Origin: Neophaeotheca triangularis
Lineage: Eukaryota
DNA length: 29,630 nucleotides
NCBI GenBank assembly: GCA_054600435.1
Contig: BAAIJX010000057.1
Span: forward strand, 124,001-153,630
Direction: 5' to 3'
The position numbers and the translations under genes were made by a program. Positions within the stretch are counted from its first letter, which is position 1. Each line of letters opens with the position of its first letter. This document shows positions 72 through 21,207 of this stretch, one piece after another. The notes beneath the pieces are model-generated. The model saw nothing but the letters and a program-made list of their open reading frames with translations, made no database searches and was not told the DNA's origin.

Positions 72-2100
72 ATGGTCTCTTCTGGGTCTTCTCCCGAGCG
101 TCGTGAGTCCCAAGTATACGATAAGGCGGACGTGGAGAGAATCAATACCCTCGAGCGTGCTGGCACCAACGCCGAATACTACGAGAAGGATGGCCTCCGC
201 ACGGAAGGCGATGGTGTCGACCATGACGGCACCCATCATAAGGTAAGCAACGCTCGATACCGCGTGCAAGCAAGAGACAAATCGCTAACACTCTGCAGTT
301 CACTTTCAAATTGTTCAGTGCACTGACGGCCATGTCGTTCTTATGGATCGGGTCTCAGATTCCTCTGTATGTCTTCTTTCCCGCATCGACTATACAACGC
401 TCTTCTCACGTCCGCTCAGGTTCCTATTCGGTGGCGTCTCGCCCGACATTTACTCAGACATTGGAGGATACGATCGATGGGTATGGCTGGTTATCGGATA
501 CCTGATTCCCAACGCCGCGCTCTGTCCATTTGTGGGAGCCCTATCCGATCTCTTCGGAAGAAAATGGGTTGGTGTTGCTGGCCAAGTTTTCTTGATCATG
601 GGCCCCATCATCACATCGACTGCTGATACGATGAACATCGCCATCGGTAAGAAATCCGCCGTCGCAAGTCGTTGGGATCTATCGACTTACTGAATTGTCA
701 ATAGCTGGTATGGTTTTCTCTGGAATCGGCGCAGGTCTCAACGAGCTCATCGCACTCTCTGGAACGGGAGAGATGGTACCAACAGCGAAGCGTGGAACGT
801 ACGTCGGGGCCGTCGTCATCACTATCCTCCCGTTCGCACCGTCAGTGCTCTATGCGCAACTCATCACTGGCGCCTCCTCCTGGCGTTGGGTCGGTGCCTT
901 CGTGGCTGGATGGAACTTGCTTGGTCTCATCTTGATCATTGTCGCCTACCACCCTCCAGCCCGCCCTCGTCGCGGACATTCCAACATGGAAATCATCAAG
1001 AGGGTCGATTATGTTGGTGGCATTCTGAGCATCGGTGGAGTATTGATGTTCATGATGGGCATGCAATGGAGCGCGCAGCAGGTGAGCGGCCTACACTCCA
1101 TTCCACAAGGGGACTTTGCTAATGTATACAGTACTCTTGGGGGAGCTCACACGTTCTGGTCCCGTTCATCTTGGGCATCGTTTTCATCATCGCCTTCTTC
1201 GTCTGGGAGGTTGTTGGCGCTAAGTATCCTATGCTTCCGGGGCGGACTTTCTCCAAGGCCAAGCGCACGATGACCCTCATCCTCCTGATCACCTTCCTCA
1301 GTGGTGCGAACTTTTTCGTCATGCTGCTCTTCTGGCCTACTCAGATCTACAATGTCTACGGTGGAGAGGACCGCGTTGGCATCGGAATTCGCAGCTTGCC
1401 CATCGGTTTCGGTATCATCGTCGGCGCCTTCCTCTCGCTTGTGGCAATCCCGGTCACTGGCGGTCGCATCAAGTTCATCATGATCTTCGCGACCGCTCTC
1501 ATGACTGCCGGTACCGGTGCGATGTCGGTCGCCAGGCCGGACAACCTCAACGTCGTATACGGACTGGTTACTATTGCCAGTCTTGGTGTAGGAGCCGTCA
1601 TCATCCCGTGCTCGATCATCGCACAGATTATTTGTCCAGACGATCTGATTGCCACAATTACGGCCATCACTCTTGCCATTCGTTACGTCGGAGGTGCCAT
1701 CGGCTTCACTATCTACTACAACGTCTTTTACCAAAAAGTGGAGAAGCTGATCACGGACAACGTGGCCACAGAGGTCATCATATACCAGCTAAGCTATCTG
1801 GAGGGTGTTGCATCAGGCGATCAGTCTTACATCACAGCTCTTACGGAGGCCATCGCCGAGGCGCGCTATGCGGACTTCAACAGGCTTGCCGAGGCCGCCG
1901 CCATGTTCCCGACAGTCACCGTTTCGCCGCAAGTCTTCAAGGACACGATCGTGGCGGCAGCGCAGGAACAGTTCGCCAATGCCTACCGGTGGCCTTACTA
2001 CATCTCGATTGCCTTTGGTGGAGCTTGCTTTATCATGTCGATCTTCTTGGGCGACATCAAGCCGTTCCTAGATGAGCACGTTGCGGCTGTGGTCGAGTAG
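72..2100 (+). CDS. MFS drug-efflux transporter, fungal trichothecene efflux pump (TRI12)-like, about 603 aa; exons 72-242, 299-366, 420-646, 705-1081, 1132-2100
   Basis: Four GT-AG introns with branch sites join the ORF pieces in frame (total 1812 nt). Many hydrophobic TM segments. MFS motif A-like GALSDLFGRK. N-terminal AMSFLWIGSQIPL segment is typical of TRI12-like pumps. Confidence 0.88.
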
Positions 2101-2702: not shown

Positions 2703-4429
2703 TCAATTCAATCCCAGAGCCACCACATCAGGCAGGTCCGCAACGTTGATCATCCTTCGACTATCCGCATCAAAGATTCTCAAGACCCCCAGGTCAAGCA
2801 CCCCTATCTTCATAGCACGTAGCCTTAATTGCGTTTCGTAACATGCGCCAGCGGGTAATGGGCCTATCCTGATATCGGCGTCGAGCGGTAAGACGTCGGG
2901 CAGGTTTTTGCGAGTCTCTAAGATGCTGCTGTCGCCAGAGCCTGTGTTCGCGTCTGCGCCTGAGCTTTGGAAAATGGGCTCTGATTGCCGGTTTGGCGCT
3001 ATGGCGAGTGAAAATCTTCTCGCACGGTTGCTGTTGTTGATGCATTGTATGCGGAGACTGAACTCTTCGCCGCGGGTGGTAGAAGGGGGCCCTTTGATGG
3101 AGAATGTCATGCCCGTATCGCTGCTGACCCTCTTGACCTCGGAATCCGAGGACTTTCGCACTGCGTTGGAAGGGATCGATACTCCGCTGAGAGGTCTGGT
3201 CCACTTGTATTCCGGCTGCGAATCTGCTGGCGAGAGGTCGGCTTGATTGTGCCAGCAGATGTCGAGGTTGACGTGGGAGCCTTGGTCTAGTTTTGCGGTT
3301 GCGAGGACATGTACCGTGACTTTTGCAGGAGATGTATCCTGGCTTGCATAGTCCTCGCGGAGAGCCTCGGCTTGGAAAACAATGATGAGCTCATCCCCTG
3401 GGTGGGTAGTTTTGGGCCACGTTGTGGCGTTCAGCTGGCGGAGATGGAAGCCTGCTGCCTCTAGGGAGACGTCCTCGATTGTCACGGTTCCCGCTATCAC
3501 GTGGGCCGTCTCGAGATGGAGGCTTACCAGCACGCTTTCCGCTAGCCGAGAATACCGGAGTCTTGAAAACAAAGCAGGCACGGTAGGAAAAGCCCGTTTT
3601 GTGGCCCCTCGTATAGATCTCAAACGCTCCTCACTCTGGCTCTCATTCGGCGATATTTTGGTGATGCGATCTTCGGGGAGGTAAACATCAGAGCCAGAGA
3701 GCGAAGGTTCGAATTTCAAAGGCTCCAAAACATTGGCCGGCAAAGGTTCGTAGCTCTTCAAGTATGTCGGTTGGACTCGCTGAGTATTCGTCGCGGCCGC
3801 ATCATCGAATGCGACGCTCGCAGTGAAGTAAATTGCCGGTCGTTGTAGCCTTACACGAGGCCATGGCAGATGCAGGACTAGCTTCCAGATCACGAAGAGG
3901 TTGTCGTTTGCAGCGACGATCTCAGGATCTTTGGAACCCTCGAAACTTCGGCTGACAAGGTCATGTTTGCCGGATGCAGAAGCAGCATTTCCACCACCAT
4001 GCGGCACAGCGTCTGTGACATGCGATGATAGGGTGACCTCGAGCTTTTGTAGGAGTTGCCGGAGATGCTCGGTATTTGTCGGAGTCGTCTTAAGGACAAG
4101 GCATATCGTTACGCTCTCATCTAGTTTCACCAACGGTGAGTACGATGGTCGTCTGAACGACGTTGCTGCTCCCTCTTACCGAAGAATAAATTACGCCTGG
4201 TCGAGATATCCGACAGGGAATCCCCCGGCGATTCTCTCTGCAGTGAAGGCTTAAGGTCCTGGTCGTGCTTTCGGGGGAGTAGAATCTGGAGTGAGGCGCC
4301 TTGGGATAAAGCCTCGTACTCACCCCGCGCACTCGTAGCAGATACGCTCATCCTACGTGCATTCTGGGAGTGTTGGCGAGGACGTGAGGTTGACGGTGAA
4401 CTGTGATGCATGTTCTGATTGGCTGCCAT
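2703..4429 (-). CDS. TRS65: TRAPP II complex subunit Trs65-like, about 555 aa; exons 4429-4180 and 4120-2703
   Basis: Minus-strand intron 4179-4121 (GTAAGA...CTCAC...TAG) joins RRNLFF|DESV in frame. C-terminal DIRIGPLPAGACYETQLRLRAMKIGVLDLGVLRIFD resembles the fungal Trs65 domain. Start codon uncertain. Confidence 0.78.
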
Positions 4430-4548
4430 CGCTGCTTATCTAATCAAGTTTGGCGGCGGCTGAAGCAGGGAGACTCTTCCAGTTGCAACAGCCACAACAC
4501 CTCCTGAGCAATGTAATCTCCATCGTCTCGCTCCTTGACTATTGTATC
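4430..4548. promoter_or_regulatory. Very short (119 bp) divergent intergenic region, probable bidirectional promoter for TRS65 and TBCE
   Basis: Head-to-head ATGs at 4429 (-) and 4549 (+). Confidence 0.55.
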
Positions 4549-6300
4549 ATGAGCCACCTGGCCTCGTTCTATGAAGGGCAGAGGCTAAGCCTCAAAAATC
4601 TTACTTGCACTGTCCGCTTCGTTGGATCGGTAGCAGGCAAAGCAGGGGAATGGCTGGGGGTTGAGTGGGACGATACGAGCCGTGGCAAGAATAATGGCAC
4701 ATTCGACGGTGTCAGGTACTTCAGCTGTAGGACCCACTTTTGCAGTTCCTCCTTAGCGGCCTTTACATCTCATACTTACAATGCAGGCAGGAGCTCTTCC
4801 GCGACAGCGGCATCATTCTTGAGGCCATCCCAGCCATGGGACGAGCCAAGAACATTTTTCCAGGCTGTCCGTGATAAGTACGTCGCCAACGAAGGTGCCA
4901 GTAGAGCGGAGGTCGTCTACTTGTCTGGCAAACAGGCAGAAGAGGTTGGCTTTGGGAAGTTTGCCAAGCGACAGGCTAAGCTCAAGGGGATCCATGTCCT
5001 GGTGCTCGACCGCATGCAAGTTCATGGCAGGCAGCGGCCTGAGAATGAACTTGACGTGGAGACTGCCCATATGTGTGCCAAGGTCACAGATCTCGACCTT
5101 AGTAGCAACCTCCTCGAGTCAGTGGAGGAGATCCAGAACATATGTTCGAAACTGCCCGAGCTGCAGCGCTTGACCCTCGATGGAGATCGCATCCTTCACG
5201 CAGTACCATTACGTCTGAGCCGGCTCAAAAGTCTCAGCATCTCGAATCTTTTCTCCCAGTGGCACGAATGCTCTCGCTTATTAGAAGGGTGCGATTCCCT
5301 AAAGATTCTCACAGCCGCGGAGAGTGGATTCACCAAAGTAGAGGATGAGCTTCCGCCTCTAGTCAGCGAACTTGATCTCGCTGGCAATCAAATGATCTCG
5401 CTCTCGCAGCTTATCGGTCCTGCCAAGAGTCAAACACTTACCAAGCTTGTTCTGAAACACAACAAGATCAGTGACACTGGCGCTAATCAGCAGCCCTTTC
5501 ACTCCGAACTTGCAGACTTGGACCTCAGCTACAACCAAATCAATACATGGTCCTTCTTCGACCAGCTTCCTCTTATTCTGCCTAGCGTCAGACATCTCCG
5601 AGTAACTGGGAACCCGCTGTATTTGAATTTGAGGTCCGCGGAGGGCAAACCACTGTCGACAGAAGACGGATACATGCTCACGATTGCTCGTCTGCCTCAA
5701 TTGCAGTCCCTGAACTACAGCAAAATCACAGACAAGGAGCGACTGAACGCCGATACGTATTATCTAAGCCAGATAGCGACCGAGATGTCTCTCACACCGC
5801 CGGAGAATGAAGCAGAGATAGCGAGTAGACATCCTAGGTGGCAAGCGTTAGTCAAGGAGTACGGCGAACCGGTGGTGGTACGGAAGCTTGGTGCCGACGA
5901 GATTGATCCAAACTCATTAGCTGCTCGACTAGTCCGCTGCAAGTTCAGCTTGGTGGATGAGGCGCAATCGATTCCGCATGCAGATTATTGGGAAGAGGAA
6001 ATCCCGAAGTCGTTCGATGTCTACAAGTTACTCGGATTGGTTGGTAAACGACTGGACCTCTCGCCGCGTTGTCTACGCTTGACTTGGGTGACGGGCGAGA
6101 AGGACCCTCTGGCGCAGAAAGACGACCTGCAGGGACCCGAATGGTGGGATAGCGATGACGAAAATGAGGCAATCCCAGAGGAAGATGAGCTCGTCTCTCG
6201 GGAGGTGGAAATCGTTCCCGGGACGAGAGCTATTGGCACGTATTTTGAAGCTGGCGAGGTTGCGATCAGGGTTTCTCTGAAGGAGCGCTCCTGTCCTTGA
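4549..6300 (+). CDS. PAC2: Tubulin-specific chaperone E (TBCE/Pac2/Alp21), about 563 aa; exons 4549-4726 and 4787-6300
   Basis: N-terminal CAP-Gly domain (TVRFVG...WLGVEWDD..RGKNNGTFDGVRYF), leucine-rich repeats (LDLSSNLL, LDLAGNQM, LDLSYNQI) and a C-terminal ubiquitin-like region. A 60-nt in-frame intron lies at 4727-4786 (GTAGGA...CAG). Confidence 0.92.
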   Translation: MSHLASFYEGQRLSLKNLTCTVRFVGSVAGKAGEWLGVEWDDTSRGKNNGTFDGVRYFSCRTHFCSSSLAAFTSHTYNAGRSSSATAASFLRPSQPWDEPRTFFQAVRDKYVANEGASRAEVVYLSGKQAEEVGFGKFAKRQAKLKGIHVLVLDRMQVHGRQRPENELDVETAHMCAKVTDLDLSSNLLESVEEIQNICSKLPELQRLTLDGDRILHAVPLRLSRLKSLSISNLFSQWHECSRLLEGCDSLKILTAAESGFTKVEDELPPLVSELDLAGNQMISLSQLIGPAKSQTLTKLVLKHNKISDTGANQQPFHSELADLDLSYNQINTWSFFDQLPLILPSVRHLRVTGNPLYLNLRSAEGKPLSTEDGYMLTIARLPQLQSLNYSKITDKERLNADTYYLSQIATEMSLTPPENEAEIASRHPRWQALVKEYGEPVVVRKLGADEIDPNSLAARLVRCKFSLVDEAQSIPHADYWEEEIPKSFDVYKLLGLVGKRLDLSPRCLRLTWVTGEKDPLAQKDDLQGPEWWDSDDENEAIPEEDELVSREVEIVPGTRAIGTYFEAGEVAIRVSLKERSCP

Positions 6301-7209
6301 TGGAGAGCGGATACAATCAAACTGAAGATGTACGTGGAAGTACTAGTAGGCAAGAGTTGACGGATCTGCAACGGTACAAATGCTGTCGGAGATCACCGAC
6401 TGCTAGCTGAGCACTGGCTGTCTGTGGTGCTAGCCGTCAAGCAACTTTGAGACCTTGTCAGTACTTGCGTCTCGCTTCCACCAGACTATTGCAACAGCTT
6501 TTGTCAAACACGACCCTGTGCTTTCCAAATGGTAATTAAGCGCCTCGAGTGGACGACGCAACGTTCAGTCGTGATCATCCTCTCGTTCTAGTTTGCACCT
6601 GTTCGCAATGCCATCGCCTCGTTGAAAGCGTTCTAGAAGCCGTTGAGACCGAGCATCGTCGGCGCTTAATGGTCCGAGGCTGGCTTGCTCCTACCATCAA
6701 CCTGGCGTACGAACACGTAGATGCATACACGTGCATACATGTTTGACTACAGTACTTTCTCAACGTTCATCGACGTCGAACATCTATCTTAATTACTTGC
6801 CTACAAATTTCCAGCAACCTTTCTCAATTTGACGTTGTCGATCAAGTTTCGACCTGTACCCTCGGAGGACTCGGTATGCGAGGCTGCTCGACTCCCGGTA
6901 CCTTCGATCGGTGCAACCTCTAGCTGAGTAGGAACTCTTAAGCTTCGACACGGCAGTCTCCTGGGCATCTTCGGACGAGCTTCTTGGACCGGCACAAGTG
7001 CCCAATTCATTGATAAAAGGGTTTTGTTATCGCAGTCGTCTTATCGCCAGGAAGAATGAAACACCGGCACCAGCTCGAGGGACCCTTGATCAAGCAAGTT
7101 GTCTCTAGCAAGCCTGGCGTCTAGGCCGGAGCCAACAGACCCCACCTGAGTAAACTTTGTAAGTTTTATATATCTCTGACCTTGCCAAACGCCAACAATC
7201 ACCCGATCA

Positions 7210-7305
7210 GCCGGGGTAGCTCAATCGGTAGAGCGTGTGGCTCTTAATGGATCATCAGATCCAGAGATCACCTCAAGGTCGTGGGTTCGAGCCCCACCTT
7301 CGGCT
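7210..7305 (+). tRNA. tRNA-Lys: tRNA-Lys(CTT), copy 1, with a 23-nt canonical intron at 7247-7269
   Basis: Cloverleaf: acceptor GCCGGGG/CTTCGGC, D stem GCTC/GAGC, anticodon CTT at 7243-7245, T arm GTGGG-TTCGAGC-CCCAC. Intron follows A37. Upstream TATA-like TTATATAT and a downstream T-run. Confidence 0.95.
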
Positions 7306-7309
7306 TTCC

Positions 7310-7332
7310 TTTTTGCTCTTCTCACCTTTTTT
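7310..7332 (+). terminator. Pol III terminator T-runs of tRNA-Lys copy 1
   Basis: T5 at 7310-7314 and T6 at 7327-7332, immediately 3' of the tRNA. Confidence 0.75.
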
Positions 7333-7422
7333 GCTTCGCACTCATTTCTGCATTACTTAGACTGATTTTCCAACGACGAGCGAAACAATGCGCGGTCTTC
7401 GCGGTCGGCAATTATCCGATAC

Positions 7423-7583
7423 GCCGGGGTAGCTCAATCGGTAGAGCGTGGTACGTTCCAACACACGCTCGAAATTACCTCATCAGTGCATCTTCTAACA
7501 CCCAACAACAGTGGCTCTTAATTGAACACTACCAGTTCAAACAGATCACCTCAAGGTCGTGGGTTCGAGCCCCATCTTCGGCT
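7423..7583 (+). tRNA. tRNA-Lys: tRNA-Lys(CTT), copy 2, with two introns: spliceosomal-type 7451-7511 (between positions 28/29) and canonical tRNA intron 7521-7547
   Basis: Exons 7423-7450, 7512-7520 and 7548-7583 join to a mature sequence identical to copy 1 except C65>T, which gives a G-U pair in the T stem. A and B boxes are intact. T5 terminator at 7588-7592. Confidence 0.85.
7451..7511 (+). other. 61-nt spliceosomal-type (GT-AG) intron inside the tRNA gene
   Basis: Donor GTACGT (7451-7456), branch site TTCTAAC (7493-7499), acceptor CAG (7509-7511). Length matches the mRNA introns in this window. Absent from paralogous copy 1. Confidence 0.85.
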
Positions 7584-8315
7584 TCTCTTTTTGCTCCTCT
7601 CACCCTTTTGCTGTGTCCTTTTGCTTCTCTAGTCTTGAAACACTTTGAGCCATCTGCTTCACGCGAGTGCATGCAGTGCTTGGGCAGAGTACGGGCGGAG
7701 TTGGGAATTTTTTCTTCTTCTCCCAGCCCCTGTTGACTTGACTGCTAGGCGAGAACAATAATGTCCACAAAGAGGTAGCGTAGCGTTCAGTCCTCAGCTC
7801 CTCGAAGCCCGGGTTGCCTCGAGCTAACGGCACATGTGGTTTTAAAAGCCCAGGAGCAAGCAAGCGGTATCCGTACGTACGTAGGTAGGTAGATACGTAC
7901 GCCACCTCGCCCCGTCTGTCTTGGAGACGCGGCTGTTTTCAAAATCGGCCCCGTCGTGGCTAGTTATACCTGGGACGTTGGTAAAGCAGGCAAGGAAGCA
8001 GCATTAACGCCAGCCAGCCCCTGGGTAGGCATACGGCTGCGCTAAGCAACGGCAACGGCGAGACCCATGTCTTCAAACTCCCCTGATAAGCGAGGCGAAC
8101 AAACTGCATGTAGCCAACGATACGTGACGAACAAGCGAGGTTGGATAGATGGCATTCAACAGGATATGTCCAGACAGATGAAATAAGCCTCTAGATACGA
8201 GAAAGAAGATGGATGAAAGGAAAGAAGAATATCAAGTAATACCACCCAGTTCAGCCAGCCAACCCAAAGAGTAGGTCTCGCGACCCTGAATGTTTTCCTC
8301 CCTTAGATACCCGGT

Positions 8316-8756: not shown

Positions 8757-9575
8757 CTAGATCCAGCCGGCAGTGTCGTTGTCTTCTGCGAACAAGTAGT
8801 CCATGACGCTGGAGATCTCTGCCATGTAGTCGCTGGCGCCGAAGTGCGCAAGACCGAGCGATTGCATGTAGACGGTGTCTTCGTCGTTGCTGTGGTTCGA
8901 GATTACTTGTCCGTACTCTTCTGCGACCTCGTCGAGCTGGGCGAGCTCGTTGTCAAAGGGGCTTTCCCTGGGCGCTTCAACAAAGCCTGAACGCGTAGGG
9001 CTGAAAGCCTCAATCGATGTGCGTCCCCTGGAGCCTGGCGGTGACTGCATGCGGCTAATGGAACGCTGTCGGCTGACCATTTCGTGAGCCTTCTTGGAGT
9101 GCGAGGGAGCGCGTTGTGGCAGGTTTGGCCTGCTTGAGTCGAAAGAAGGACGGGCAGAGGCAGTGGGAGAGTGGCTTGACGTGGGCCTGTTGGTCTCGAC
9201 GGCGGGCTTGAAGTAGCAGCTCAAATGGTTTGGCTCGCATGGCGACTCGTCAACGGAAGAAGCGTCGGTGATGGTATCGTTCGAGTGCACGCTACCACTG
9301 CTGGCGTCGCTGTCTTCACCCGAGCTGTGGCTTGAAGCGGCAGACGATGGGTACGAGGGCTGGTTGCAGTACTCGATGGGCGAGGTGCCGGGGATATCAG
9401 CGTGGTTGTGCGCCGTGGCATTCGTCGTCGACAAAAGTGCTACGGGGGACGAGATCTCATGGCGGAATACCGGCTTACCACCACGTTGGGTAGCAGCTCT
9501 GCCTATACGCATGGGGTTGCTGATTTCGGGCTCGGGCTTCTTGCCGCGAGTGCTGAATGCGCGAGCGAAGGCCAT
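8757..9575 (-). CDS. Ser/Pro-rich hypothetical protein of filamentous ascomycetes, 272 aa, single exon
   Basis: Long ORF with coding-like codon usage. Motifs RHEISSPVALLSTTN, PNLPQRAPSHSKKAH and ELAQLDEVAEE resemble a conserved Pezizomycotina protein of unknown function (from recall, not searched). Confidence 0.8.
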   Translation of the reverse strand: MAFARAFSTRGKKPEPEISNPMRIGRAATQRGGKPVFRHEISSPVALLSTTNATAHNHADIPGTSPIEYCNQPSYPSSAASSHSSGEDSDASSGSVHSNDTITDASSVDESPCEPNHLSCYFKPAVETNRPTSSHSPTASARPSFDSSRPNLPQRAPSHSKKAHEMVSRQRSISRMQSPPGSRGRTSIEAFSPTRSGFVEAPRESPFDNELAQLDEVAEEYGQVISNHSNDEDTVYMQSLGLAHFGASDYMAEISSVMDYLFAEDNDTAGWI

Positions 9576-10983: not shown

Positions 10984-13776
10984 CTACTCATCTGTCAGCA
11001 TCGCCGTGTCGGACTGGGCGAGACTGTCGCTCAACACAGCCCTCAGCTCATGAATCACTTCTGCACCTGGATCTTTGATCTCAAGCAGGGTGCGCAGTCT
11101 CGAAGTCATTTCGTCCAGTTCGGCCGGCTCCAAGGTCTGTGAGAAAGCACCGTAGGCACCAACAGCCGGCTGATTCCAGCTGAGGCTCGTTGTGTTGGTC
11201 TTTTCCCCAGCCAGTGCCTTTTGACCTGCTCCTTGGTCACAAGTGAGTACCAAATTGTGTGTCCGCCGCTTTGCAGGTACATTCTCCAGTGGTAGCCGAG
11301 AAGACTTCCTCCGGCGAAGGTGGGTTGTGTCTCCAGCCTCGGTGGTGCGGCGCCGGCGTGGCCCTGGCGCCTTGTCGCTCGCAGGTAGGTATTCTTCATC
11401 GGCAGCATCGACAACGTTTCCACTTATCTGCCTCAGCGGACGTGAGCCGCCGCTTTTGCGTCGCCTCGATAGCAGCTCTGGGTTGTTGTCCGGCCGAGCT
11501 TGAGCTTGAGCTTGCAGTTCTGCCACTTCGCTCGCAGGCACGAAACCTCTACCGGCCATTACACCGCTTGGTGATGTGCTCGCCCCCTCGTCAAGGACCG
11601 TGACATCTTCGGATGCCAGGCGTCGCGCAGACTGCCTTCGCTTGGAAGCAGGGTGTCTCCTGTTCTCAGTAGGATCGCTTTCAAGGCCATCATTTGCGGA
11701 CTCGGTAGACCCAATCCAATCTCGAATGTCTCCATTATGGTCGGGTGATGTCCGCATTTGTGTATCTTCCATTTCACCCTGGCGTACAAGACCATGCGCA
11801 GGTGCACGCACGTTGGTTGGCCTTGAAGGACGCTCGATTCCTTCTAGATGGTCGAACCAAGCTCTCCCCTCGGGAGGCCGCATAGTAGTAGGCGGAACGA
11901 ATGGCTTGTTTACGGAGGCTGGCTGGCCTTTTTTGAGATAGGTACGACGTGGCTGCCGATGAGCCTCCGGAATAGCGCTCAATGAGGTGCCGGGTTCAGG
12001 GTTGCTCGACGAAGGAGCGGTGTTATAGTTGTAAGCAAGTCTTTGCTGAACATTCAAGTTTGCGACAGGAGTTTGGATCCGAGGGACTTCCACCTCGTAA
12101 GGCGTAGCCGGTAGAGGTAGCGCAGCTTCACCTATGAGGCGGCCGTCCTGTGCGTGTTGATGCCCCGGGACGTGGTTTGATGGATGAAAAGTGCCCTGCG
12201 GTAAGGGCGGCGATGATGGTCGGGGCGTGGGCAACATTCCAGGCTCGTCTCCCCGGTCTTGTCGGAGACGTATAGGACTCGAAGGGGGTGCCATTGTATC
12301 CGAGCTGGGTTGCTCAGAGGTATCGTAACGGGGTCCTGGGCGACCAACCGATGCATTCATTCTGGCCATTACCCACGGATTGGACACCGTAATATCCTTC
12401 TTCGCTTGGCGGAGCTCCTCCACATCCGCTGCAGTCCTGTCAATCGCCGGGCGAACCCCCACTGTTTCATCTTCGTCATCGCAGCCGTACATGTTGGACA
12501 GGAACGAACGCTGCTCCTCAGCGGGAGGCTCGTTGTACTCGATCATGGCGGGCACTGTCGGTGCATTGCCGTGTGGAGGTTGAACGGCGCTGACTTTCAC
12601 AGGTGTCGAGAACCTTGATCGGGGCGGGGACTCAAGGGACGGCTGTTGCAAGTGGTAAAGCGCTTCTGTGGTAGCTTGCGCAGCATCTTGTATGGTGCTT
12701 TTAGCCTCACGGCTCCGGCGCTCTTCAACATCCGTAAATGCTTCAGCAAAGAGCCTCCGTGCACATTCGACGACTATGTCTGGATCTTCAAACAAAACAT
12801 CATCTTTTGCAGGTTCGACATTGGCGTCATAACTTTCAGCCGGGCAGCTGACCTCCAGATAGATGAAAGGGTCTTTCACCCCGTCGAACCGATTGTTGGC
12901 CCCCTTGAGGGCCTCCCTGAAGATCTTGACCAATTGCTTTGCCATATTGCGGGAAGTTGAAACTGGCCTACCATCGATGGAAATGAAAGAACCCACATTG
13001 CTGACTTTGACAGGGTCCGCATCTGTCCGAGGGAGATAGGCGTGCATTGTGAAGCCTTCATGCGAGGTAACAATCCAGTCGCATTGAGAAATGCAAGAAG
13101 AACCTAGCACTTTGAGAGCTGCGCTTTGCGCCTGATTGGCACCCGACTGTGGTGCGTATGTGAAATTGCCTTTGTCGTTCTTCGCCTTCAAGACTCGAAG
13201 GGACAGTCGAGTTTGTGGCCTCGCTAAAGCGTACGCTTGCATGGTCTGTTTGATCTTTTTCAAGCATTTCTCTGCATTCTTCAGAATGTTTTGCCGACGG
13301 ACAGGATTCACTTTGATGAAGTCGCCAAGCTTGACGGTGGTACCGACAGGAAAAGATGCGCGGTCATGGCTCAGGACTTCGCCTTGCTGGCTGATTTTCA
13401 AAGATGTCGCAACCGGCTCGCCCTCTACTCGGGTACTGATGGTTAAAGTTCCGCACACTTCAGCTGCACTTGCCAACGCCTCGCCGCGAAAGCCCAAGCT
13501 CGAGCCGCCAATAGACAAGAGATCGGCCTCTCCGCTGATCTTGCTCGTGCAGTATCGTCTTGCCACCATGCTGCGGTCCTCGGGGGCGATGCCATGGCCA
13601 TTGTCGCGGACTTGAATCACATCGACGGTATTGTTGCTAATCTCCACGGCGATCGACGTAGCGTGTGCGTCCAGTGCATTATCGATGAGCTCCTTGACTG
13701 CGGCAGCTGGGTCCGTAAGAACTTGCGAGGCGCCGATTGCTCGGACGGCTTTCTGAGGCAAGGCTTGGATACCCAT
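10984..13776 (-). CDS. MutL-family DNA mismatch-repair protein (MLH2/PMS1-like), 930 aa
   Basis: GHKL ATPase motifs (KELIDNALDA, DNGHGI, TSKI, SLGFRGEALAS, GTTV) and transducer domain (YDANVEPAKDDVLF), followed by a long low-complexity tail. Confidence 0.92.
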   Translation of the reverse strand: MGIQALPQKAVRAIGASQVLTDPAAAVKELIDNALDAHATSIAVEISNNTVDVIQVRDNGHGIAPEDRSMVARRYCTSKISGEADLLSIGGSSLGFRGEALASAAEVCGTLTISTRVEGEPVATSLKISQQGEVLSHDRASFPVGTTVKLGDFIKVNPVRRQNILKNAEKCLKKIKQTMQAYALARPQTRLSLRVLKAKNDKGNFTYAPQSGANQAQSAALKVLGSSCISQCDWIVTSHEGFTMHAYLPRTDADPVKVSNVGSFISIDGRPVSTSRNMAKQLVKIFREALKGANNRFDGVKDPFIYLEVSCPAESYDANVEPAKDDVLFEDPDIVVECARRLFAEAFTDVEERRSREAKSTIQDAAQATTEALYHLQQPSLESPPRSRFSTPVKVSAVQPPHGNAPTVPAMIEYNEPPAEEQRSFLSNMYGCDDEDETVGVRPAIDRTAADVEELRQAKKDITVSNPWVMARMNASVGRPGPRYDTSEQPSSDTMAPPSSPIRLRQDRGDEPGMLPTPRPSSPPLPQGTFHPSNHVPGHQHAQDGRLIGEAALPLPATPYEVEVPRIQTPVANLNVQQRLAYNYNTAPSSSNPEPGTSLSAIPEAHRQPRRTYLKKGQPASVNKPFVPPTTMRPPEGRAWFDHLEGIERPSRPTNVRAPAHGLVRQGEMEDTQMRTSPDHNGDIRDWIGSTESANDGLESDPTENRRHPASKRRQSARRLASEDVTVLDEGASTSPSGVMAGRGFVPASEVAELQAQAQARPDNNPELLSRRRKSGGSRPLRQISGNVVDAADEEYLPASDKAPGPRRRRTTEAGDTTHLRRRKSSRLPLENVPAKRRTHNLVLTCDQGAGQKALAGEKTNTTSLSWNQPAVGAYGAFSQTLEPAELDEMTSRLRTLLEIKDPGAEVIHELRAVLSDSLAQSDTAMLTDE

Positions 13777-16274: not shown

Positions 16275-19200
16275 TCAAGGCATAGTCCTATTATGCGCCG
16301 ACCGCTGGACATCAGGCGCCAAACCACCCCCACTGGTGGAAGAAGGCGCAGGAGGCGTCCTGGCCCTCGCCGGCTCGGAACTCAAACTACTGACCGAGCG
16401 GTCCATGCTCGGCGGCCGCAGACTCTCGCCATCGCCATCTCTGCGATCAATAGGCGACCATCCGGCGACACTGCCGGCGACAACGCCCGCCATGGCGATG
16501 CCCGCGAGAGCCGAGTTGCTGCGTGAGCGGCTGCGGTGTTTGGAAGACGGTGTTGGGGGTGCGCTGAGGTGTTCGGCGTGTTCCTGATCGGGGGTCTTGG
16601 GGGGAGTGCTCTGGGATAGACGGCTGCGGCTCGGGCTGCGGGAGTAGATGAGAGCTTGGCGGGGGTGCTGGAGGGTGAATTTGAGGTTGTTGAGGCGGCC
16701 ACCCTTGTACTTCTTGATGAAGGCGAGTTCGCGCTTGATTTCGTAGAGACCCTCTTCCTGGAATGCGAAGCTGTTTTCCTCGTCGGCGTTCTTCTTGCGG
16801 GTGAATCGGGCGAAGAAGCGCTTGACTGGCGAGGGAACGAGACTGCAGAGGAAGGCCCAGAAACGTCGGACGATTTCATCTGGGACCAGACGTACGACCA
16901 CGCCGACTAGGAGAGATACAGCACCGCATACTATCGCAATAGCCCATTGATCTTTGTTCTGGTGCGTTATGCGAAAAGCGGCTCCGCCCACAAAGATGAT
17001 GAGGACCTGGCCACCGATCATGACGCAGAGGATACCGACGAAGAACAAGTTCCGGTGAATCCCTTCGAAGATATTGAAGTTGTTGTCCAGACGTCTGTTG
17101 TTGAAGGCGTTAAAGATTTGCATCCACGTAAAGGTATTGAACACCAGGGTCTGAATGTGCTCTTCGTCGAAATGGAACATCGTGGTGCCTGCGTAGTAGA
17201 GGATGAAGGTGATGATGAGCTGGTAGATAGCCTGACCAATGATCATCTTCCACATCCTTAGCGAGATCAAAGGCGCAGATTTAGGATCGGGCTTGCGGTT
17301 GAGGATCTTGCGAGTGGGGGGATCGGTCGCGAGCGCGAGTGCTGCCATTGTGTCCATGATCAAGTTGATCCATAGAAGCTGCACTGCGGTAAGCACAGAT
17401 TCCTCCTCTGCACTGCTTACGGCCGAGACGAACGCCAGCAGCACTGCAGTGATGTTGACAGTAAGCTGAAACTGCAAGAATTTCCTCACAGCGTCGTTCG
17501 TAGAGCGACCCCATTTGGTGGCGTCGATGATGGCCGCAAAGTTGTCGTTCATGAGAACAATATCCGAAGCCTCTTTCGCGACTTCAGTACCTGCGATGTT
17601 CATGGCGAAACCAACGTCAGCAGTTTTGAGGGCCGGTGCGTCGTTGGTGCCATCGCCAGTGACGGCGACGGTCTCGCCCATGTCCTTGAGTAACTTGACG
17701 AGAATTCGTTTGTCCTCTGGTGACGAGCGCGAGAGAACCTGAAGAGTTGGCAGTAGTTCCCTTTGTTGCTGCTCTGACAAGGTACGGAAGAGCGGGCCTT
17801 CCATAGCGATACCGTCGCCGTGAAGAATGCCACATTCGCGAGCAATGGCTTTTGCGGTCATGATATTGTCACCTGTAACCATACGCACAAAGATGCCGGC
17901 CATCTTGGCGTCCTCGACTGCCTCGATGACACCTTCACGAAGAGGGTCTTGAATGCCGACCAAGCCGAGCCAAGTCATCTCCTTGAGCACGTCTCCGAAT
18001 ACAGCCATTGTAGGGTCGTCCTCTTGTCGTCGGACATCCTTCGGTGGCCATGATGCAAAATCGCGATAGACGAAGCCAATGGTTCTCAGCGAATCGGTGG
18101 CATAAGACTCGATCGTTGACTCAATCACCTCGCGAGTCTGGGATGTCATAGCCATTGTTCCAATGCCTGCAGTCGGATCCTGGATTATGTTGGAGCAGTG
18201 GCCTAGCATGATTTCGGAAGCACCCTTAACCATAAGCCTGTACCCGCTTCCATCCTTGAGCTTCACGACCATGGCCATGCATTTTCTCGACGAGTCGAAT
18301 GGTACAATCTGGACAATACTAGCATTGCTGCGTTCAATCTGAACCGATTCCATGCCGAGATAGGTTCTAGCGAAATCCAAGAGAGCAGTCTCGGTTTTGG
18401 AGCCGACGTACTGACCTTCGTCATTTTCAAAAGCAGTGGAATTGATGACAATGCTTTCTCGCCAAATGTTGCTAACCCTCTCGTGAAGCTGCTGGACGAA
18501 TTTCTGGGCCGTTGTCGTTCCCAAGTGGCCAGGCTTGGTGGTGTTGGTCTCTGCGCCTTCAGTGTCCAACTTGGTACGGTTGTTGAACTTATTGGACACC
18601 CCGAGGGAGCCAGTAACAACAGTCATGACGTTTTGAGTGAGAGTTCCAGTCTTGTCGGTACAGACGTTGGTCGCGTTACCCATGGTCTCGCACGATCTGA
18701 GAACTCTCACCAGGTTGCCCTCCTTGAGCATTCGCCTCGTTGCGAACGCCAGAGCCAAGGTAACTGCGAGCGGAAGGCCTTCTGGAACAGCCACGACGAC
18801 AATGGTAACAGCCACAATCAGAATATCCATGAAGCGTCTGCCCTTTTGCGCCGGTGGCTCATCGTTATTGGGCAAGTCGGCGAGGAATTTGATGAGCAAG
18901 ACCACAAATAACAGGAGAGCAGCACTACTACCCAGCTTGGCGATCTGGTCTGCCAGCTTGTTGAGCTTTTTCTGAAGAGGTGTCGGGTCGTTCTCCTCAC
19001 GCAAAGCCATCATAGTCTTGCCGTAAAGCGAGTTGACACCGGTTCCCGTAACAAGCATCCGACCGACGCCTTCAGTGACCTTGGCTCCGGAGATGATGAA
19101 AGGATCCAGCTTCCTAAGGTTTTCGTTGGCTTCCATGGCGCGGTAGACCTCGTAGCCGTTGGATTTCCTAACCAAATCGGACTCGCCAGTAGCCGATGAC

Positions 19201-20345
19201 TCGTCGCATTTGATGCTGAAGGACTCAACGAGCACACCGTCGCAAGACAGCATGTCACCAGTCTCGAGCAGTAGTATGTCGCCTACCAGGATATCGTGGA
19301 CACTGATCTCGCGGGTTTGTCCCGAGCGGCACACCTTGACATTGCGGTTATCCTTTTTCTTGTTGAGCTTGACAAATTGTCGTTCTTTTTGCCAGTCATT
19401 GAGTGCGCCCACACCGACCACGACGATGATTGCGACGATGATTGCTACTCCTTCGACCCATTCAACATTAGGTTCACCTGCTTCATGTTCCTGACCGAAG
19501 GTCGAGTAGAGGCCAAGTGCCAAAGCAATGGCGGCGGCGGCTGTAAGCAGAATGAGGATTTTGTCGTTGTAGGCCATCCATGCCAACTGCAGGATGTTCT
19601 TCGCTTTACGTTCGGGTAGCTTATTCGTTAGGAAGATTCGTCTCCGGTCGCCGAATTGATCACTAGGGTTCGCGGGTGGGCCAGCATCAGCCTTTCCTAC
19701 TTGGGTGGTGTCTGACGATGGACTGTCTGTCGCTGTGACGTCCTCAAACGTGACACGACCAGGCAGATGGGCTTCCTCGAGACTCAACCCGGCGGCCAAA
19801 TTTGTCCTCAGTCCCTTCTCCAACCCAGGCAGTCCACCAACGGCATGAAAGGCCCCTAAACTCTTGGGATTCACCAGCTTGGTCATATGCCCAGGCGCAA
19901 AGGCAAAAGGGTTCTCGTCCCGCTGGAAGTCGGCTTCAGTGCCGGGATCGGGCTTGAGGGCAGCATCGTCGGGCAAAACTGGATGACCGCCAGCGCCGGT
20001 GGGAAGAGAATCGGATAGGAAGGCCTTGTTCGACCTGTCGGTAGGTGAATTGACGTAGGTGACATCAGAAGTCGTGGTCGAGTAGGAATTGTTGGTGTCG
20101 ACGCTGCCTCCACGATTCCGTGTGGGTACAGACAGGTGACTTGATGCCGGTGGTTGTGGGGATATCGGGGGGGCTTGATTGTCGCTCATATCATCTCGAC
20201 TTTGTGGAGGCTGACCGACAGCCGATGTATCGATAGTAATGGTTGGTGCCCGAGGGCGACCCTGTTGGGCGTCAGCGAGCAGCCCATGCCAGACACGATC
20301 ATGTCTTGGCGTTGATGGGGATGGACATGGACATACGGAAGCCAT
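16275..20345 (-). CDS. PMC1: P-type IIB (PMCA-type) Ca2+-transporting ATPase, about 1331 aa; coding exons 20345-20337 and 20261-16275
   Basis: Motifs TGES, VVAVPEGLPLAVT, DKTGTLT phosphorylation site, KGASE, TGDGTNDAPALK and QLLWINLIMD. A 75-nt in-frame intron at 20336-20262 (GTATGT...GCTGAC...CAG) follows MAS. Confidence 0.95.
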   Translation of the reverse strand: MASVCPCPSPSTPRHDRVWHGLLADAQQGRPRAPTITIDTSAVGQPPQSRDDMSDNQAPPISPQPPASSHLSVPTRNRGGSVDTNNSYSTTTSDVTYVNSPTDRSNKAFLSDSLPTGAGGHPVLPDDAALKPDPGTEADFQRDENPFAFAPGHMTKLVNPKSLGAFHAVGGLPGLEKGLRTNLAAGLSLEEAHLPGRVTFEDVTATDSPSSDTTQVGKADAGPPANPSDQFGDRRRIFLTNKLPERKAKNILQLAWMAYNDKILILLTAAAAIALALGLYSTFGQEHEAGEPNVEWVEGVAIIVAIIVVVGVGALNDWQKERQFVKLNKKKDNRNVKVCRSGQTREISVHDILVGDILLLETGDMLSCDGVLVESFSIKCDESSATGESDLVRKSNGYEVYRAMEANENLRKLDPFIISGAKVTEGVGRMLVTGTGVNSLYGKTMMALREENDPTPLQKKLNKLADQIAKLGSSAALLLFVVLLIKFLADLPNNDEPPAQKGRRFMDILIVAVTIVVVAVPEGLPLAVTLALAFATRRMLKEGNLVRVLRSCETMGNATNVCTDKTGTLTQNVMTVVTGSLGVSNKFNNRTKLDTEGAETNTTKPGHLGTTTAQKFVQQLHERVSNIWRESIVINSTAFENDEGQYVGSKTETALLDFARTYLGMESVQIERSNASIVQIVPFDSSRKCMAMVVKLKDGSGYRLMVKGASEIMLGHCSNIIQDPTAGIGTMAMTSQTREVIESTIESYATDSLRTIGFVYRDFASWPPKDVRRQEDDPTMAVFGDVLKEMTWLGLVGIQDPLREGVIEAVEDAKMAGIFVRMVTGDNIMTAKAIARECGILHGDGIAMEGPLFRTLSEQQQRELLPTLQVLSRSSPEDKRILVKLLKDMGETVAVTGDGTNDAPALKTADVGFAMNIAGTEVAKEASDIVLMNDNFAAIIDATKWGRSTNDAVRKFLQFQLTVNITAVLLAFVSAVSSAEEESVLTAVQLLWINLIMDTMAALALATDPPTRKILNRKPDPKSAPLISLRMWKMIIGQAIYQLIITFILYYAGTTMFHFDEEHIQTLVFNTFTWMQIFNAFNNRRLDNNFNIFEGIHRNLFFVGILCVMIGGQVLIIFVGGAAFRITHQNKDQWAIAIVCGAVSLLVGVVVRLVPDEIVRRFWAFLCSLVPSPVKRFFARFTRKKNADEENSFAFQEEGLYEIKRELAFIKKYKGGRLNNLKFTLQHPRQALIYSRSPSRSRLSQSTPPKTPDQEHAEHLSAPPTPSSKHRSRSRSNSALAGIAMAGVVAGSVAGWSPIDRRDGDGESLRPPSMDRSVSSLSSEPARARTPPAPSSTSGGGLAPDVQRSAHNRTMP

Positions 20346-20610
20346 GGTGGAAAAGGAGACTGCAAGCTGTGTCTGCCTGCTTGGTAGATTGTGATGCGGA
20401 ATAGCGGTTGTGATGAGGTTGTGGGCGGGTCTTGGTAGGTAGGCTTGAATCAATTGCGACCAGGATTGGGGTTGTGGCAGGAGCCGCGGGAGATGTGCGA
20501 AGGATTCTTCATGCCAAACAAGCACTGAGTGCAGGTACTGTGTAGTGTCGAAAGCAGTAACGACTTCCAATTCCCTTTTGTTGTTTGTTCGCTGTGAGCG
20601 CTGACGTGCG

Positions 20611-20634
20611 TGGTGGTGGTGGTGGTGGTGGTGG
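20611..20634. repeat. (TGG)8 microsatellite in the PMC1 5' region
   Basis: Directly visible. Confidence 0.9.
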
Positions 20635-21207
20635 CAACAGATGTAGAAGTTGAACAGCAAGCTTAGCGGGAGAGGACGACGAACGATGGGGGCTGACGGG
20701 CGGCGATGAGCATCTGATGATGGCGGGCAGTGCAACAAGAATACCTAAGGTACCTTATTGATGGATGTTTAACTTACACAGCCCCAAAAGGTACCTAACA
20801 AGGTAGAAATGGACTGTATTCCTCGTCAAGTACACCTCAGGTACGAATGCTTGGCGTGAAGGAGGCGCAGCAACTACACCACGACCCGCTAGTTATGCAC
20901 CCCACACCGCTAAAGGGTATGCCCAGGCGTATTGTCGATAATAATAATGGAGAGAGAAGAGACAAAGGTAAAGCGACCGGTCCCGCGAACCATGTCCGAC
21001 TGTAACAATTATACCTTAGTCCTTATAACCCTCACAGTCAAAACATAATAATACTACTGAAGATTGTTCATCTTCGAGGACAGGTCTTAGCAAGCAAGTA
21101 TGGCTGTATAGCGATTATTGGAAGTACTACTAGTATGCACCTCAGTAGTGACTACTGACAGCAATTGCAGCTGCCTCTTCCCGTCGCCACCCCATGAGGT
21201 CCGGGTG

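Follow-up and report, generated by a model that had tools for sequence, protein, structure and literature searches.

Spliceosomal introns are described by van Hoof et al. as a feature of Pol II transcripts, mRNAs among them (PMC12530127). They are also known from the U6, U1, U2, and U5 snRNA genes and from ascomycete rRNA genes; a review of U6 that cites the works on these ncRNA introns (Tani and Ohshima 1989, 1991; Takahashi 1993, 1996; Bhattacharya 2000) tentatively ascribes them to reverse splicing and calls the determinants of intron insertion into ncRNAs unclear (PMC5855946). Ares et al. report that intron-lariat spliceosomes keep their catalytic activity and propose reverse splicing into RNA, or into the single-stranded DNA of an R-loop, that enters via the exon-release tunnel seen in the cryo-EM structures of others (PMC11146597). 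The same source covers the introner-like elements (van der Burgt 2012; Collemare 2015; Simmons 2015) and gives a general description of EBS–IBS pairing. Yeast tRNA genes are sites of R-loops (PMC4214602, PMC5413955), and group I introns spread by reverse splicing via intron–exon base pairing (PMC1299323). In full-text literature searches, no report of a tRNA gene with a spliceosomal intron was found, nor any case of one small Pol III RNA that needs both the spliceosome and the tRNA endonuclease. The birth of spliceosomal introns is a long-standing open question, and reverse splicing has been favoured for the introns of snRNA genes without a sequence-level footprint.

The locus described here lies in a stretch of 29,630 nt that was analysed as a whole (hereafter, the window). 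The window has a G+C content of 53.6% and the appearance of nuclear DNA from a filamentous fungus, and its long ORFs give Pfam matches to a TRI12-type fungal efflux pump, a P-type cation ATPase, a MutL-type mismatch-repair protein, Trs65, and a CAP-Gly/LRR protein. An Rfam search of the whole window returned only two matches, both to tRNA (RF00005), and no other family at the gathering score. These two matches are tandem genes, copies 1 and 2 (Table 1). Both are assigned to tRNA-Lys(CUU) because, in the Rfam alignment of copy 1, the triplet CUU follows C32–U33 and occupies positions 34–36. ARAGORN called copy 1 Leu(taa); this identity was rejected, as the intron had been taken as tRNA sequence and the Rfam alignment gives Lys(CUU). 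Without intron handling, ARAGORN missed copy 2.

Table 1. Features of the two tandem tRNA-Lys(CUU) genes, in window coordinates.
Feature	Position	Strand	Remarks
tRNA-Lys(CUU) copy 1	7210–7305	+	RF00005, 51.9 bits; without the mRNA-type intron
Canonical tRNA intron, copy 1	7247–7269 (23 nt)	+	tRNA position 37/38
tRNA-Lys(CUU) copy 2	7423–7583	+	RF00005, 37.3 bits (gathering score 29); 101-nt insertion in the anticodon arm
Copy 2, exon 1	7423–7450	+	tRNA nt 1–28: acceptor 5′ strand, D arm, G26, U27, G28; identical to copy 1, 7210–7237
Spliceosomal-looking (mRNA-type) intron, 61 nt	7451–7511	+	between tRNA nt 28 and 29 of copy 2; fungal splice signals
9-mer CACACGCTC	7462–7470	+	antisense to the ligated exon junction GAGCGTG/TG
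Predicted exon 1–intron hairpin	7440–7479 (40 nt)	+	7444–7450/7464–7470 (7 bp), 7451–7452/7461–7462, 7440–7443/7476–7479
Copy 2, exon 2	7512–7583	+	tRNA nt 29–37, 7512–7520; tRNA nt 38–73, 7548–7583
Canonical tRNA intron, copy 2	7521–7547 (27 nt)	+	tRNA position 37/38

When positions 7451–7511 are removed from copy 2, all exon positions equal those of copy 1 except T7574, a base private to copy 2 that converts a T-stem G–C pair into G·U. Since the exons are otherwise identical to those of copy 1, the A- and B-box regions of copy 2 are intact. Each gene is followed, 5 nt past its end, by a T5 terminator (at 7310 for copy 1 and at 7588 for copy 2), and no run of four or more T occurs within copy 2. 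Copy 2 looks like a maintained gene and is presumably transcribed by Pol III. The flanks common to both units extend for about 15 nt upstream and about 35 nt downstream of each gene. In their middle parts, the canonical introns of the two copies no longer align, but each forms a 6-bp hairpin adjoining the anticodon. Because these introns have diverged, the gene pair must be old enough for intron turnover to have taken place while the exons stayed unchanged. The likeness of the exons could also stem from gene conversion among tRNA-Lys genes.

The 61-nt segment that splits copy 2 carries fungal splice signals at both ends. The donor GTACGT (7451–7456), directly 3′ of tRNA nt 28, fits the extended fungal donor consensus, GTRNGT. 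A branch site, CTAAC, lies at 7495–7499 and places the branch A7498 at 13 nt from G7511, and the acceptor CAG (7509–7511) contains the first AG past the branch site, there being no other AG in 7499–7511. The GTRNGT donor, CTRAY branch, and YAG acceptor of a U2-type intron are thus all present, and exact removal of the segment restores the tRNA. On this evidence, the premise of an earlier sequence-only reading, namely, that a spliceosomal-type intron resides in a tRNA gene, holds at the level of sequence. By simple arithmetic, a random 61-mer would carry all three signals correctly placed about once in a million or less.

In comparison with copy 1, the insertion is precise, its boundary being ambiguous by one G only. 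No target-site duplication longer than 1 nt was found at 7451–7511 and no terminal inverted repeat was seen there by eye, i.e., the segment has neither of the two marks of transposon-derived introners. Such an insertion is what would be expected of reverse splicing rather than of transposition. Folded alone, the intron is unstructured (−1.97 kcal/mol, z = +0.19). Within the window, it has no sister or donor copy; the best other matches are 9–14 nt long, with E values of at least 1.2.

Other identities were considered for the segment and rejected. Excision by the tRNA endonuclease would have to occur at 28/29 rather than at 37/38, and the best register for a BHB motif has 4 of 7 pairs. A group I intron would agree with the presence of a complement to the exons, but the pair at the splice site is G7450–C7464 and not U·G, the length is 61 nt, and neither a P3–P9 core nor an Rfam match was found. 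Nor is it a group II intron: it starts with GUACGU instead of GUGYG, is 61 nt long, lacks domains I–VI, and has no Rfam match. Finally, the resemblances noticed by eye to the 3′ part of the tRNA (ACCTCA, TTC.A.C, and CCCA) might have marked a decayed duplicate, but a direct local alignment gave p = 0.51.

The reverse complement of the 9-mer at 7462–7470 is GAGCGTGTG, which consists of the last 7 nt of exon 1 (GAGCGTG, 7444–7450) and the first 2 nt of exon 2 (TG, 7512–7513). Both the sequence and the coordinates are exactly as first noticed in the sequence-only reading. This junction sequence, GAGCGTG/TG, exists only before insertion or after splicing. Complementarity continues beyond the 9-mer: GGTA (7440–7443) faces TACC (7476–7479) across a 5-nt internal loop, and GT (7451–7452) can pair with AC (7461–7462). 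Overall, the intron is antisense to tRNA nt 18–30 at 13 of 13 positions, with one 5-nt gap. The pairing of 7444–7450 with 7464–7470 encloses a 13-nt loop (7451–7463) that contains GTACGT, and ACCTCA at 7477–7482 is identical to 7548–7553 (tRNA nt 38–43); both observations had been made before and were reproduced. The ACCTCA repeat is non-significant: arithmetic predicts about 1.3 direct 6-mer matches, and the direct local alignment does no better than chance.

Group II introns select their targets, in forward as in reverse splicing, by EBS–IBS pairing between intron and exon, and the spliceosome is considered to be related to these introns. The explanation favoured here, tentatively and with less than an even chance of being right, is that the 9-nt complement and its TACC extension are a relic of a base-pair-guided insertion. 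A free intron RNA, in a post-splicing spliceosome, would have annealed through its antisense stretch to uninterrupted tRNA-Lys sequence, either in a tRNA transcript or, where an R-loop had formed at the tRNA gene, in the sense strand of DNA that it displaced. Reverse splicing of the intron opposite the paired stretch would have followed, in a geometry like that of P1/P10 in group I introns and of EBS/IBS in group II introns, and a complete mRNA-type intron would thereby have been placed precisely between tRNA nt 28 and 29. The present exon–intron hairpin would be a side effect of this event, taking the place of the D stem for as long as the intron is present, and the 37/38 intron would be left afterwards for the tRNA splicing endonuclease. 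An origin footprint of this kind is compatible with a precise, duplication-free insertion and with a complement across the uninterrupted junction. Indeed, among the explanations considered, only a relic accounts for the fact that the complement spans a junction that is uninterrupted. It would also give a reason for a tRNA being the target, though a tRNA is not a known neighbour of the spliceosome's active site.

A more specific form of this explanation holds that reverse splicing was guided by the 9–13-nt antisense match acting as a group-II-like, intron-borne ‘exon-binding site’ within a modern spliceosome, with 7462–7470 and 7476–7479 as its footprint. This form is possible but doubtful. Exon contacts in the spliceosome are supplied by U5 loop 1, so an intron-borne guide would be unprecedented. 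Several observations speak against a relic in either form. The scissile bond would sit 2 bp within the duplex, and no donor or sister intron is present in the 29.6-kb window. When metagenome contigs were scanned for exon 1 joined to GTNNGT, 31 loci were obtained, and none of the 31 is in a tRNA; because none has tRNA sequence upstream, these loci are regarded as chance matches.

The main competitor of the relic is coincidence, according to which the intron is real, the complement is a chance match without a role in origin or function, and the hairpin is incidental. This is possible, if somewhat doubtful, and it turns on how unusual the match is. The sequence-only reading had estimated that a given 9-mer would be met about once in several thousand such stretches, and the naive expectation, 53/4^9, or about 1 in 4,900, bears this out. 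Decoys were made from all segments of 61 nt in the window, the tRNA pair excepted, each with its own flanks, and a junction-spanning complement of at least 9 nt was found in 98 of 58,116 (0.17%), in agreement with the naive 8 × 53/4^9. The same was found in 0.67% of 20,000 dinucleotide shuffles of the intron core, a more conservative control since the dinucleotides of the motif itself are retained. Introns called from reading frames in the window had been considered as a control and were replaced by the all-positions decoys; a strict filter left 0 candidates, and a relaxed one left 405, mostly spurious and overlapping. Both controls weigh against coincidence, as does the growth of the match by 4 + 2 further pairs into a 40-nt hairpin.

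Fairer definitions of the match shift the balance toward coincidence. The 9-nt match is a single instance and was noticed post hoc. A reverse-complement match of at least 9 nt anywhere in the 100-nt pre-tRNA occurs in 1.3% of shuffles, and a match of at least 9 nt to the pre-tRNA in either orientation occurs in 4.5%. A gapped local alignment between the intron and the antisense pre-tRNA has p = 0.068, and the ACCTCA repeat, as stated above, is at chance (p = 0.51). In terms of energy, the duplex of the intron with the last 15 nt of exon 1 (−14.7 kcal/mol) is equalled or surpassed in 3.2% of the shuffles, in about 3.8% of pieces drawn at random from the window, and in 6.7% of decoys, i.e., it is ordinary for a G+C-rich exon end. 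The same values count against a relic. Collectively, the exact junction-spanning match is unusual, roughly at the 0.2–0.7% level, and the strength of the pairing is only mildly so. If the complement is coincidental, the intron in a tRNA gene stays a notable feature and the 9-mer becomes a footnote.

Public sequence data bear on these explanations to a limited extent. A search of public runs gave 21 matches, four of which were compared, with one covering copy 2. Of the other three, one covers only 6980–7258, and two match only the exon sequence of tRNA-Lys genes at other loci. All four consist of DNA contigs, and no spliced junction is seen in them. No RNA run of the organism was among the 21 matches; the six RNA rows are metatranscriptomes that share at most 0.07 of the words. 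The related contig, which shares its organism label with the probable source run but comes from another sample, covers 7280–7572. It contains the intron and shows 10 differences from the window and one 1-nt insertion. The list gives nine of the 10: those at 7345, 7364, 7376, 7390, and 7415 lie in the spacer, those at 7491, 7503, and 7505 in the 61-nt intron, and the one at 7533 in the hairpin loop of the canonical intron. The exons, the splice signals, the 9-mer, and the partner of the 9-mer are free of these nine. The nine all lie at least 31 nt from the contig ends, and the tenth may lie near an end.

The listed substitutions amount to 9 in 205 non-exon positions (4.4%) and 0 in 88 exon positions; by Poisson arithmetic, P(0) for the exons is about 0.02, and P(at most 1) is about 0.10, which lends weak support to the view that copy 2 is maintained. 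At about 4–5% divergence, a neutral 9-mer is expected to be unchanged in about 2 of 3 cases, and the absence of listed changes from the 9-mer in this one relative agrees with coincidence. With a divergence of only about 4–5%, the relative is too close to reveal constraint, decay, or covariation. All three listed intron changes lie within the last 21 of the 61 nt, for which (21/61)^3 is about 0.04; this speaks against coincidence, and the partition was chosen post hoc.

In the sequence-only reading, the pairing was also suggested to compete with the D stem and to block folding of the tRNA. In silico, the competition is pronounced. The 40-nt hairpin has a predicted energy of −13.6 kcal/mol (z = −2.90), and 1 of 200 shuffles was equally stable. 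In the full 161-nt precursor, whose free minimum is −43.3 kcal/mol (z = −2.15), the seven pairs between 7444–7450 and 7464–7470 have probabilities of 0.975–0.999, in comparison to 0.002 for the D stem. Enforcing the acceptor, D, and T stems raises the energy to −34.1 kcal/mol, a cost of 9.2 kcal/mol, and forcing 7464–7470 to be unpaired raises it to −35.2 kcal/mol, a cost of 8.1 kcal/mol. The D arm alone reaches −3.9 kcal/mol, compared with −11.3 to −13.6 kcal/mol for the hairpin, and in stepwise folds the hairpin supplants the D stem as soon as 7470 has been transcribed. The unspliced precursor is thus predicted to hold tRNA nt 18–28 in an exon–intron hairpin and not in the D stem. However, RNAfold fails to return a cloverleaf for copy 1 as well, and also for copy 2 once the 61 nt are taken out, and for this reason the predicted folds say little about a cell, in which tRNA-binding proteins are present. 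The suggested competition and block to folding are thus supported in silico only.

These folds are the basis of a third explanation, namely, that the hairpin is selected as a fold-blocker or timer. By occupying nt 18–28, it would stop the D arm and the L-shape from forming, and end-processing, export, and endonuclease cleavage would not take place before the spliceosome has acted. Dominance of the hairpin in the predicted ensemble, the energies required to open it, and its early formation during transcription are in its favour, as is the fact that the relative has no listed change in the first 40 nt of the intron. Yet such an unchanged stretch has, by arithmetic, P of about 0.17 at the local neutral rate, and thermodynamic folding mispredicts tRNAs generally, as copy 1 shows. 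Moreover, the 2 nt complementary to exon 2 play no part in the hairpin. The stem would also bury exon positions −3 to −1 and mostly the +1/+2 positions of the donor (unpaired probability 0.00–0.18), leaving +3 to +6 in the loop. From work in yeast, hairpins at splice sites are expected to slow splicing rather than to aid it. A selected fold-blocker is therefore considered unlikely.

It had further been proposed that the complement serves as a guide sequence that joins the exons. Nothing speaks for this past the 2-nt overlap with exon 2, and the intron lacks the features by which group I and group II introns are defined. Least probable of all, and in our view very unlikely, is a DNA-level origin, in which filler at a repaired break was partly copied in inverted form from a tRNA-Lys template by template switching and proved spliceable by luck or became so later: tRNA genes are prone to breaks and R-loops (PMC5413955), and the intron contains an inverted copy of tRNA nt 22–30 (or of nt 18–30 with a 5-nt gap) as well as two short, colinear direct matches to the 3′ half of the tRNA (ACCTCA and a 7-mer at intron index 38), but the direct matches do not exceed chance, no nearby sequence matches the remainder of the intron, no target bases were deleted or duplicated beyond 1 nt, and random filler that begins with GTRNGT, finishes with YAG, and has CTRAC at 13 nt from that finish would arise about once in a million or less. 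In order of probability, the relic of a guided insertion comes first, followed by coincidence, a selected fold-blocker, and DNA repair.

What makes the locus informative is a combination of four features: a tandem twin without the 61-nt intron that serves as the ‘before’ state, a precise insertion, a candidate pairing footprint across the site, and the private base T7574, which could mark the mature product of the split gene in tRNA sequencing. Should splicing of the transcript occur, one small Pol III RNA would need both the spliceosome and the tRNA endonuclease.

Among known systems, the closest are the introns of fungal U6 and other snRNA genes and of rRNA genes (PMC5855946). As in those cases, a GT–AG intron with fungal signals is located in the gene of a structural ncRNA, and U6, too, is a Pol III transcript. 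The host gene is different: the passages of PMC5855946 on snRNA and rRNA introns do not include a tRNA, and a tRNA has no known place near the spliceosome's active site. Those passages likewise do not mention a junction complement such as the one seen here. The introner-like elements of fungi and algae, in the account given in PMC11146597, resemble the present intron in being short (<200 nt), non-coding, recent, free of transposon features, and possibly moved by the spliceosome. Unlike them, this intron has no second copy in the window, is unstructured when folded alone, and resides in a tRNA gene rather than in a protein-coding gene.

With regard to the self-splicing introns, the arrangement at 7462–7470 recalls the internal guide sequence of group I introns (P1/P10): in both, the intron holds, soon past the 5′ splice site, a stretch complementary to the last bases of exon 1 and the first bases of exon 2, without a break at the ligated junction. 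The present intron differs from group I in its length of 61 nt, the absence of a ribozyme core, a G–C pair in place of U·G at the splice site, and its spliceosomal signals. In contrast to introns with group II EBS–IBS pairing, it has neither a GUGYG start nor domains I–VI. A further difference separates copy 2 from the snRNA-gene introns, in that it also keeps an endonuclease-type intron, and two splicing systems would share one 161-nt transcript. The occurrence of an mRNA-type intron together with a canonical tRNA intron in a single tRNA gene is more remarkable than the 9-mer, and it would place copy 2 in the known class of ncRNA genes with spliceosomal introns.

The tandem genes at 7210–7305 (copy 1) and 7423–7583 (copy 2) are both tRNA-Lys(CUU), as identified by Rfam alignment. 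ARAGORN called copy 1 (7209–7306) as tRNA-Leu(taa), an identity ruled out by this alignment, and its output did not contain copy 2 (7423–7583). Therefore, split tRNA genes of this kind would be missed or mislabelled by standard tRNA finders. The pair is located in a 2.4-kb gap, with the CAP-Gly gene on one side and the ORF lacking a Pfam match on the other (see the table).

Canonical introns of the two tRNA-Lys copies and neighbouring ORFs
Feature	Position	Strand	Length	Pfam match
TRI12-like MFS pump ORF	1171–2100	+		yes
Trs65 ORF	2703–4133	−		yes
CAP-Gly/LRR protein ORF	4450–6300	+		yes
Canonical 37/38 intron, copy 1	7247–7269		23 nt	
Canonical 37/38 intron, copy 2	7521–7547		27 nt	
ORF	8757–9575	−		none
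MutL-type mismatch-repair protein ORF	10984–13776	−		yes
P-type cation ATPase ORF	16275–20738	−		yes

The similarity of the two units extends into their flanks. Approximately 35 nt on the 3′ side of each gene (7306–7340 and 7584–7617) are conserved between the units (CTTTTTGCTC.TCTCACC..TTTTGCT), which exceeds the requirement of a bare T-run terminator, and approximately 15 nt on the 5′ side are likewise conserved. The middles of the two canonical 37/38 introns could not be aligned with each other. Nevertheless, a 6-bp hairpin adjoins the anticodon in the canonical intron of each copy; thus, the structure has been retained while the sequence has been swapped out.

For the 61-nt mRNA-type intron of copy 2, a comparison is provided by the contig of a related sample (public run X2). 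All three substitutions listed within this intron (7491, 7503, and 7505) fall in its 3′ third, where they flank the branch site without touching it, and none is listed in the 5′ 40 nt.

Both copies carry a U29·U41 mismatch in the anticodon stem (7238/7273 in copy 1 and 7512/7551 in copy 2). Among the tRNA-Lys contig loose ends from two other public sequencing runs, the 3′ strand of this stem reads CCTCA in X21 and in one loose end of X4, and TCTCA in another X4 loose end. These loose ends point to the U29·U41 mismatch as a probable lineage feature of this tRNA-Lys. The sole exon difference between the copies lies at 7574, where copy 2 has T, giving a G49·U65 pair, and copy 1 has C. T7574 is a ready marker by which the mature tRNA of the split copy 2 could be distinguished from that of copy 1.
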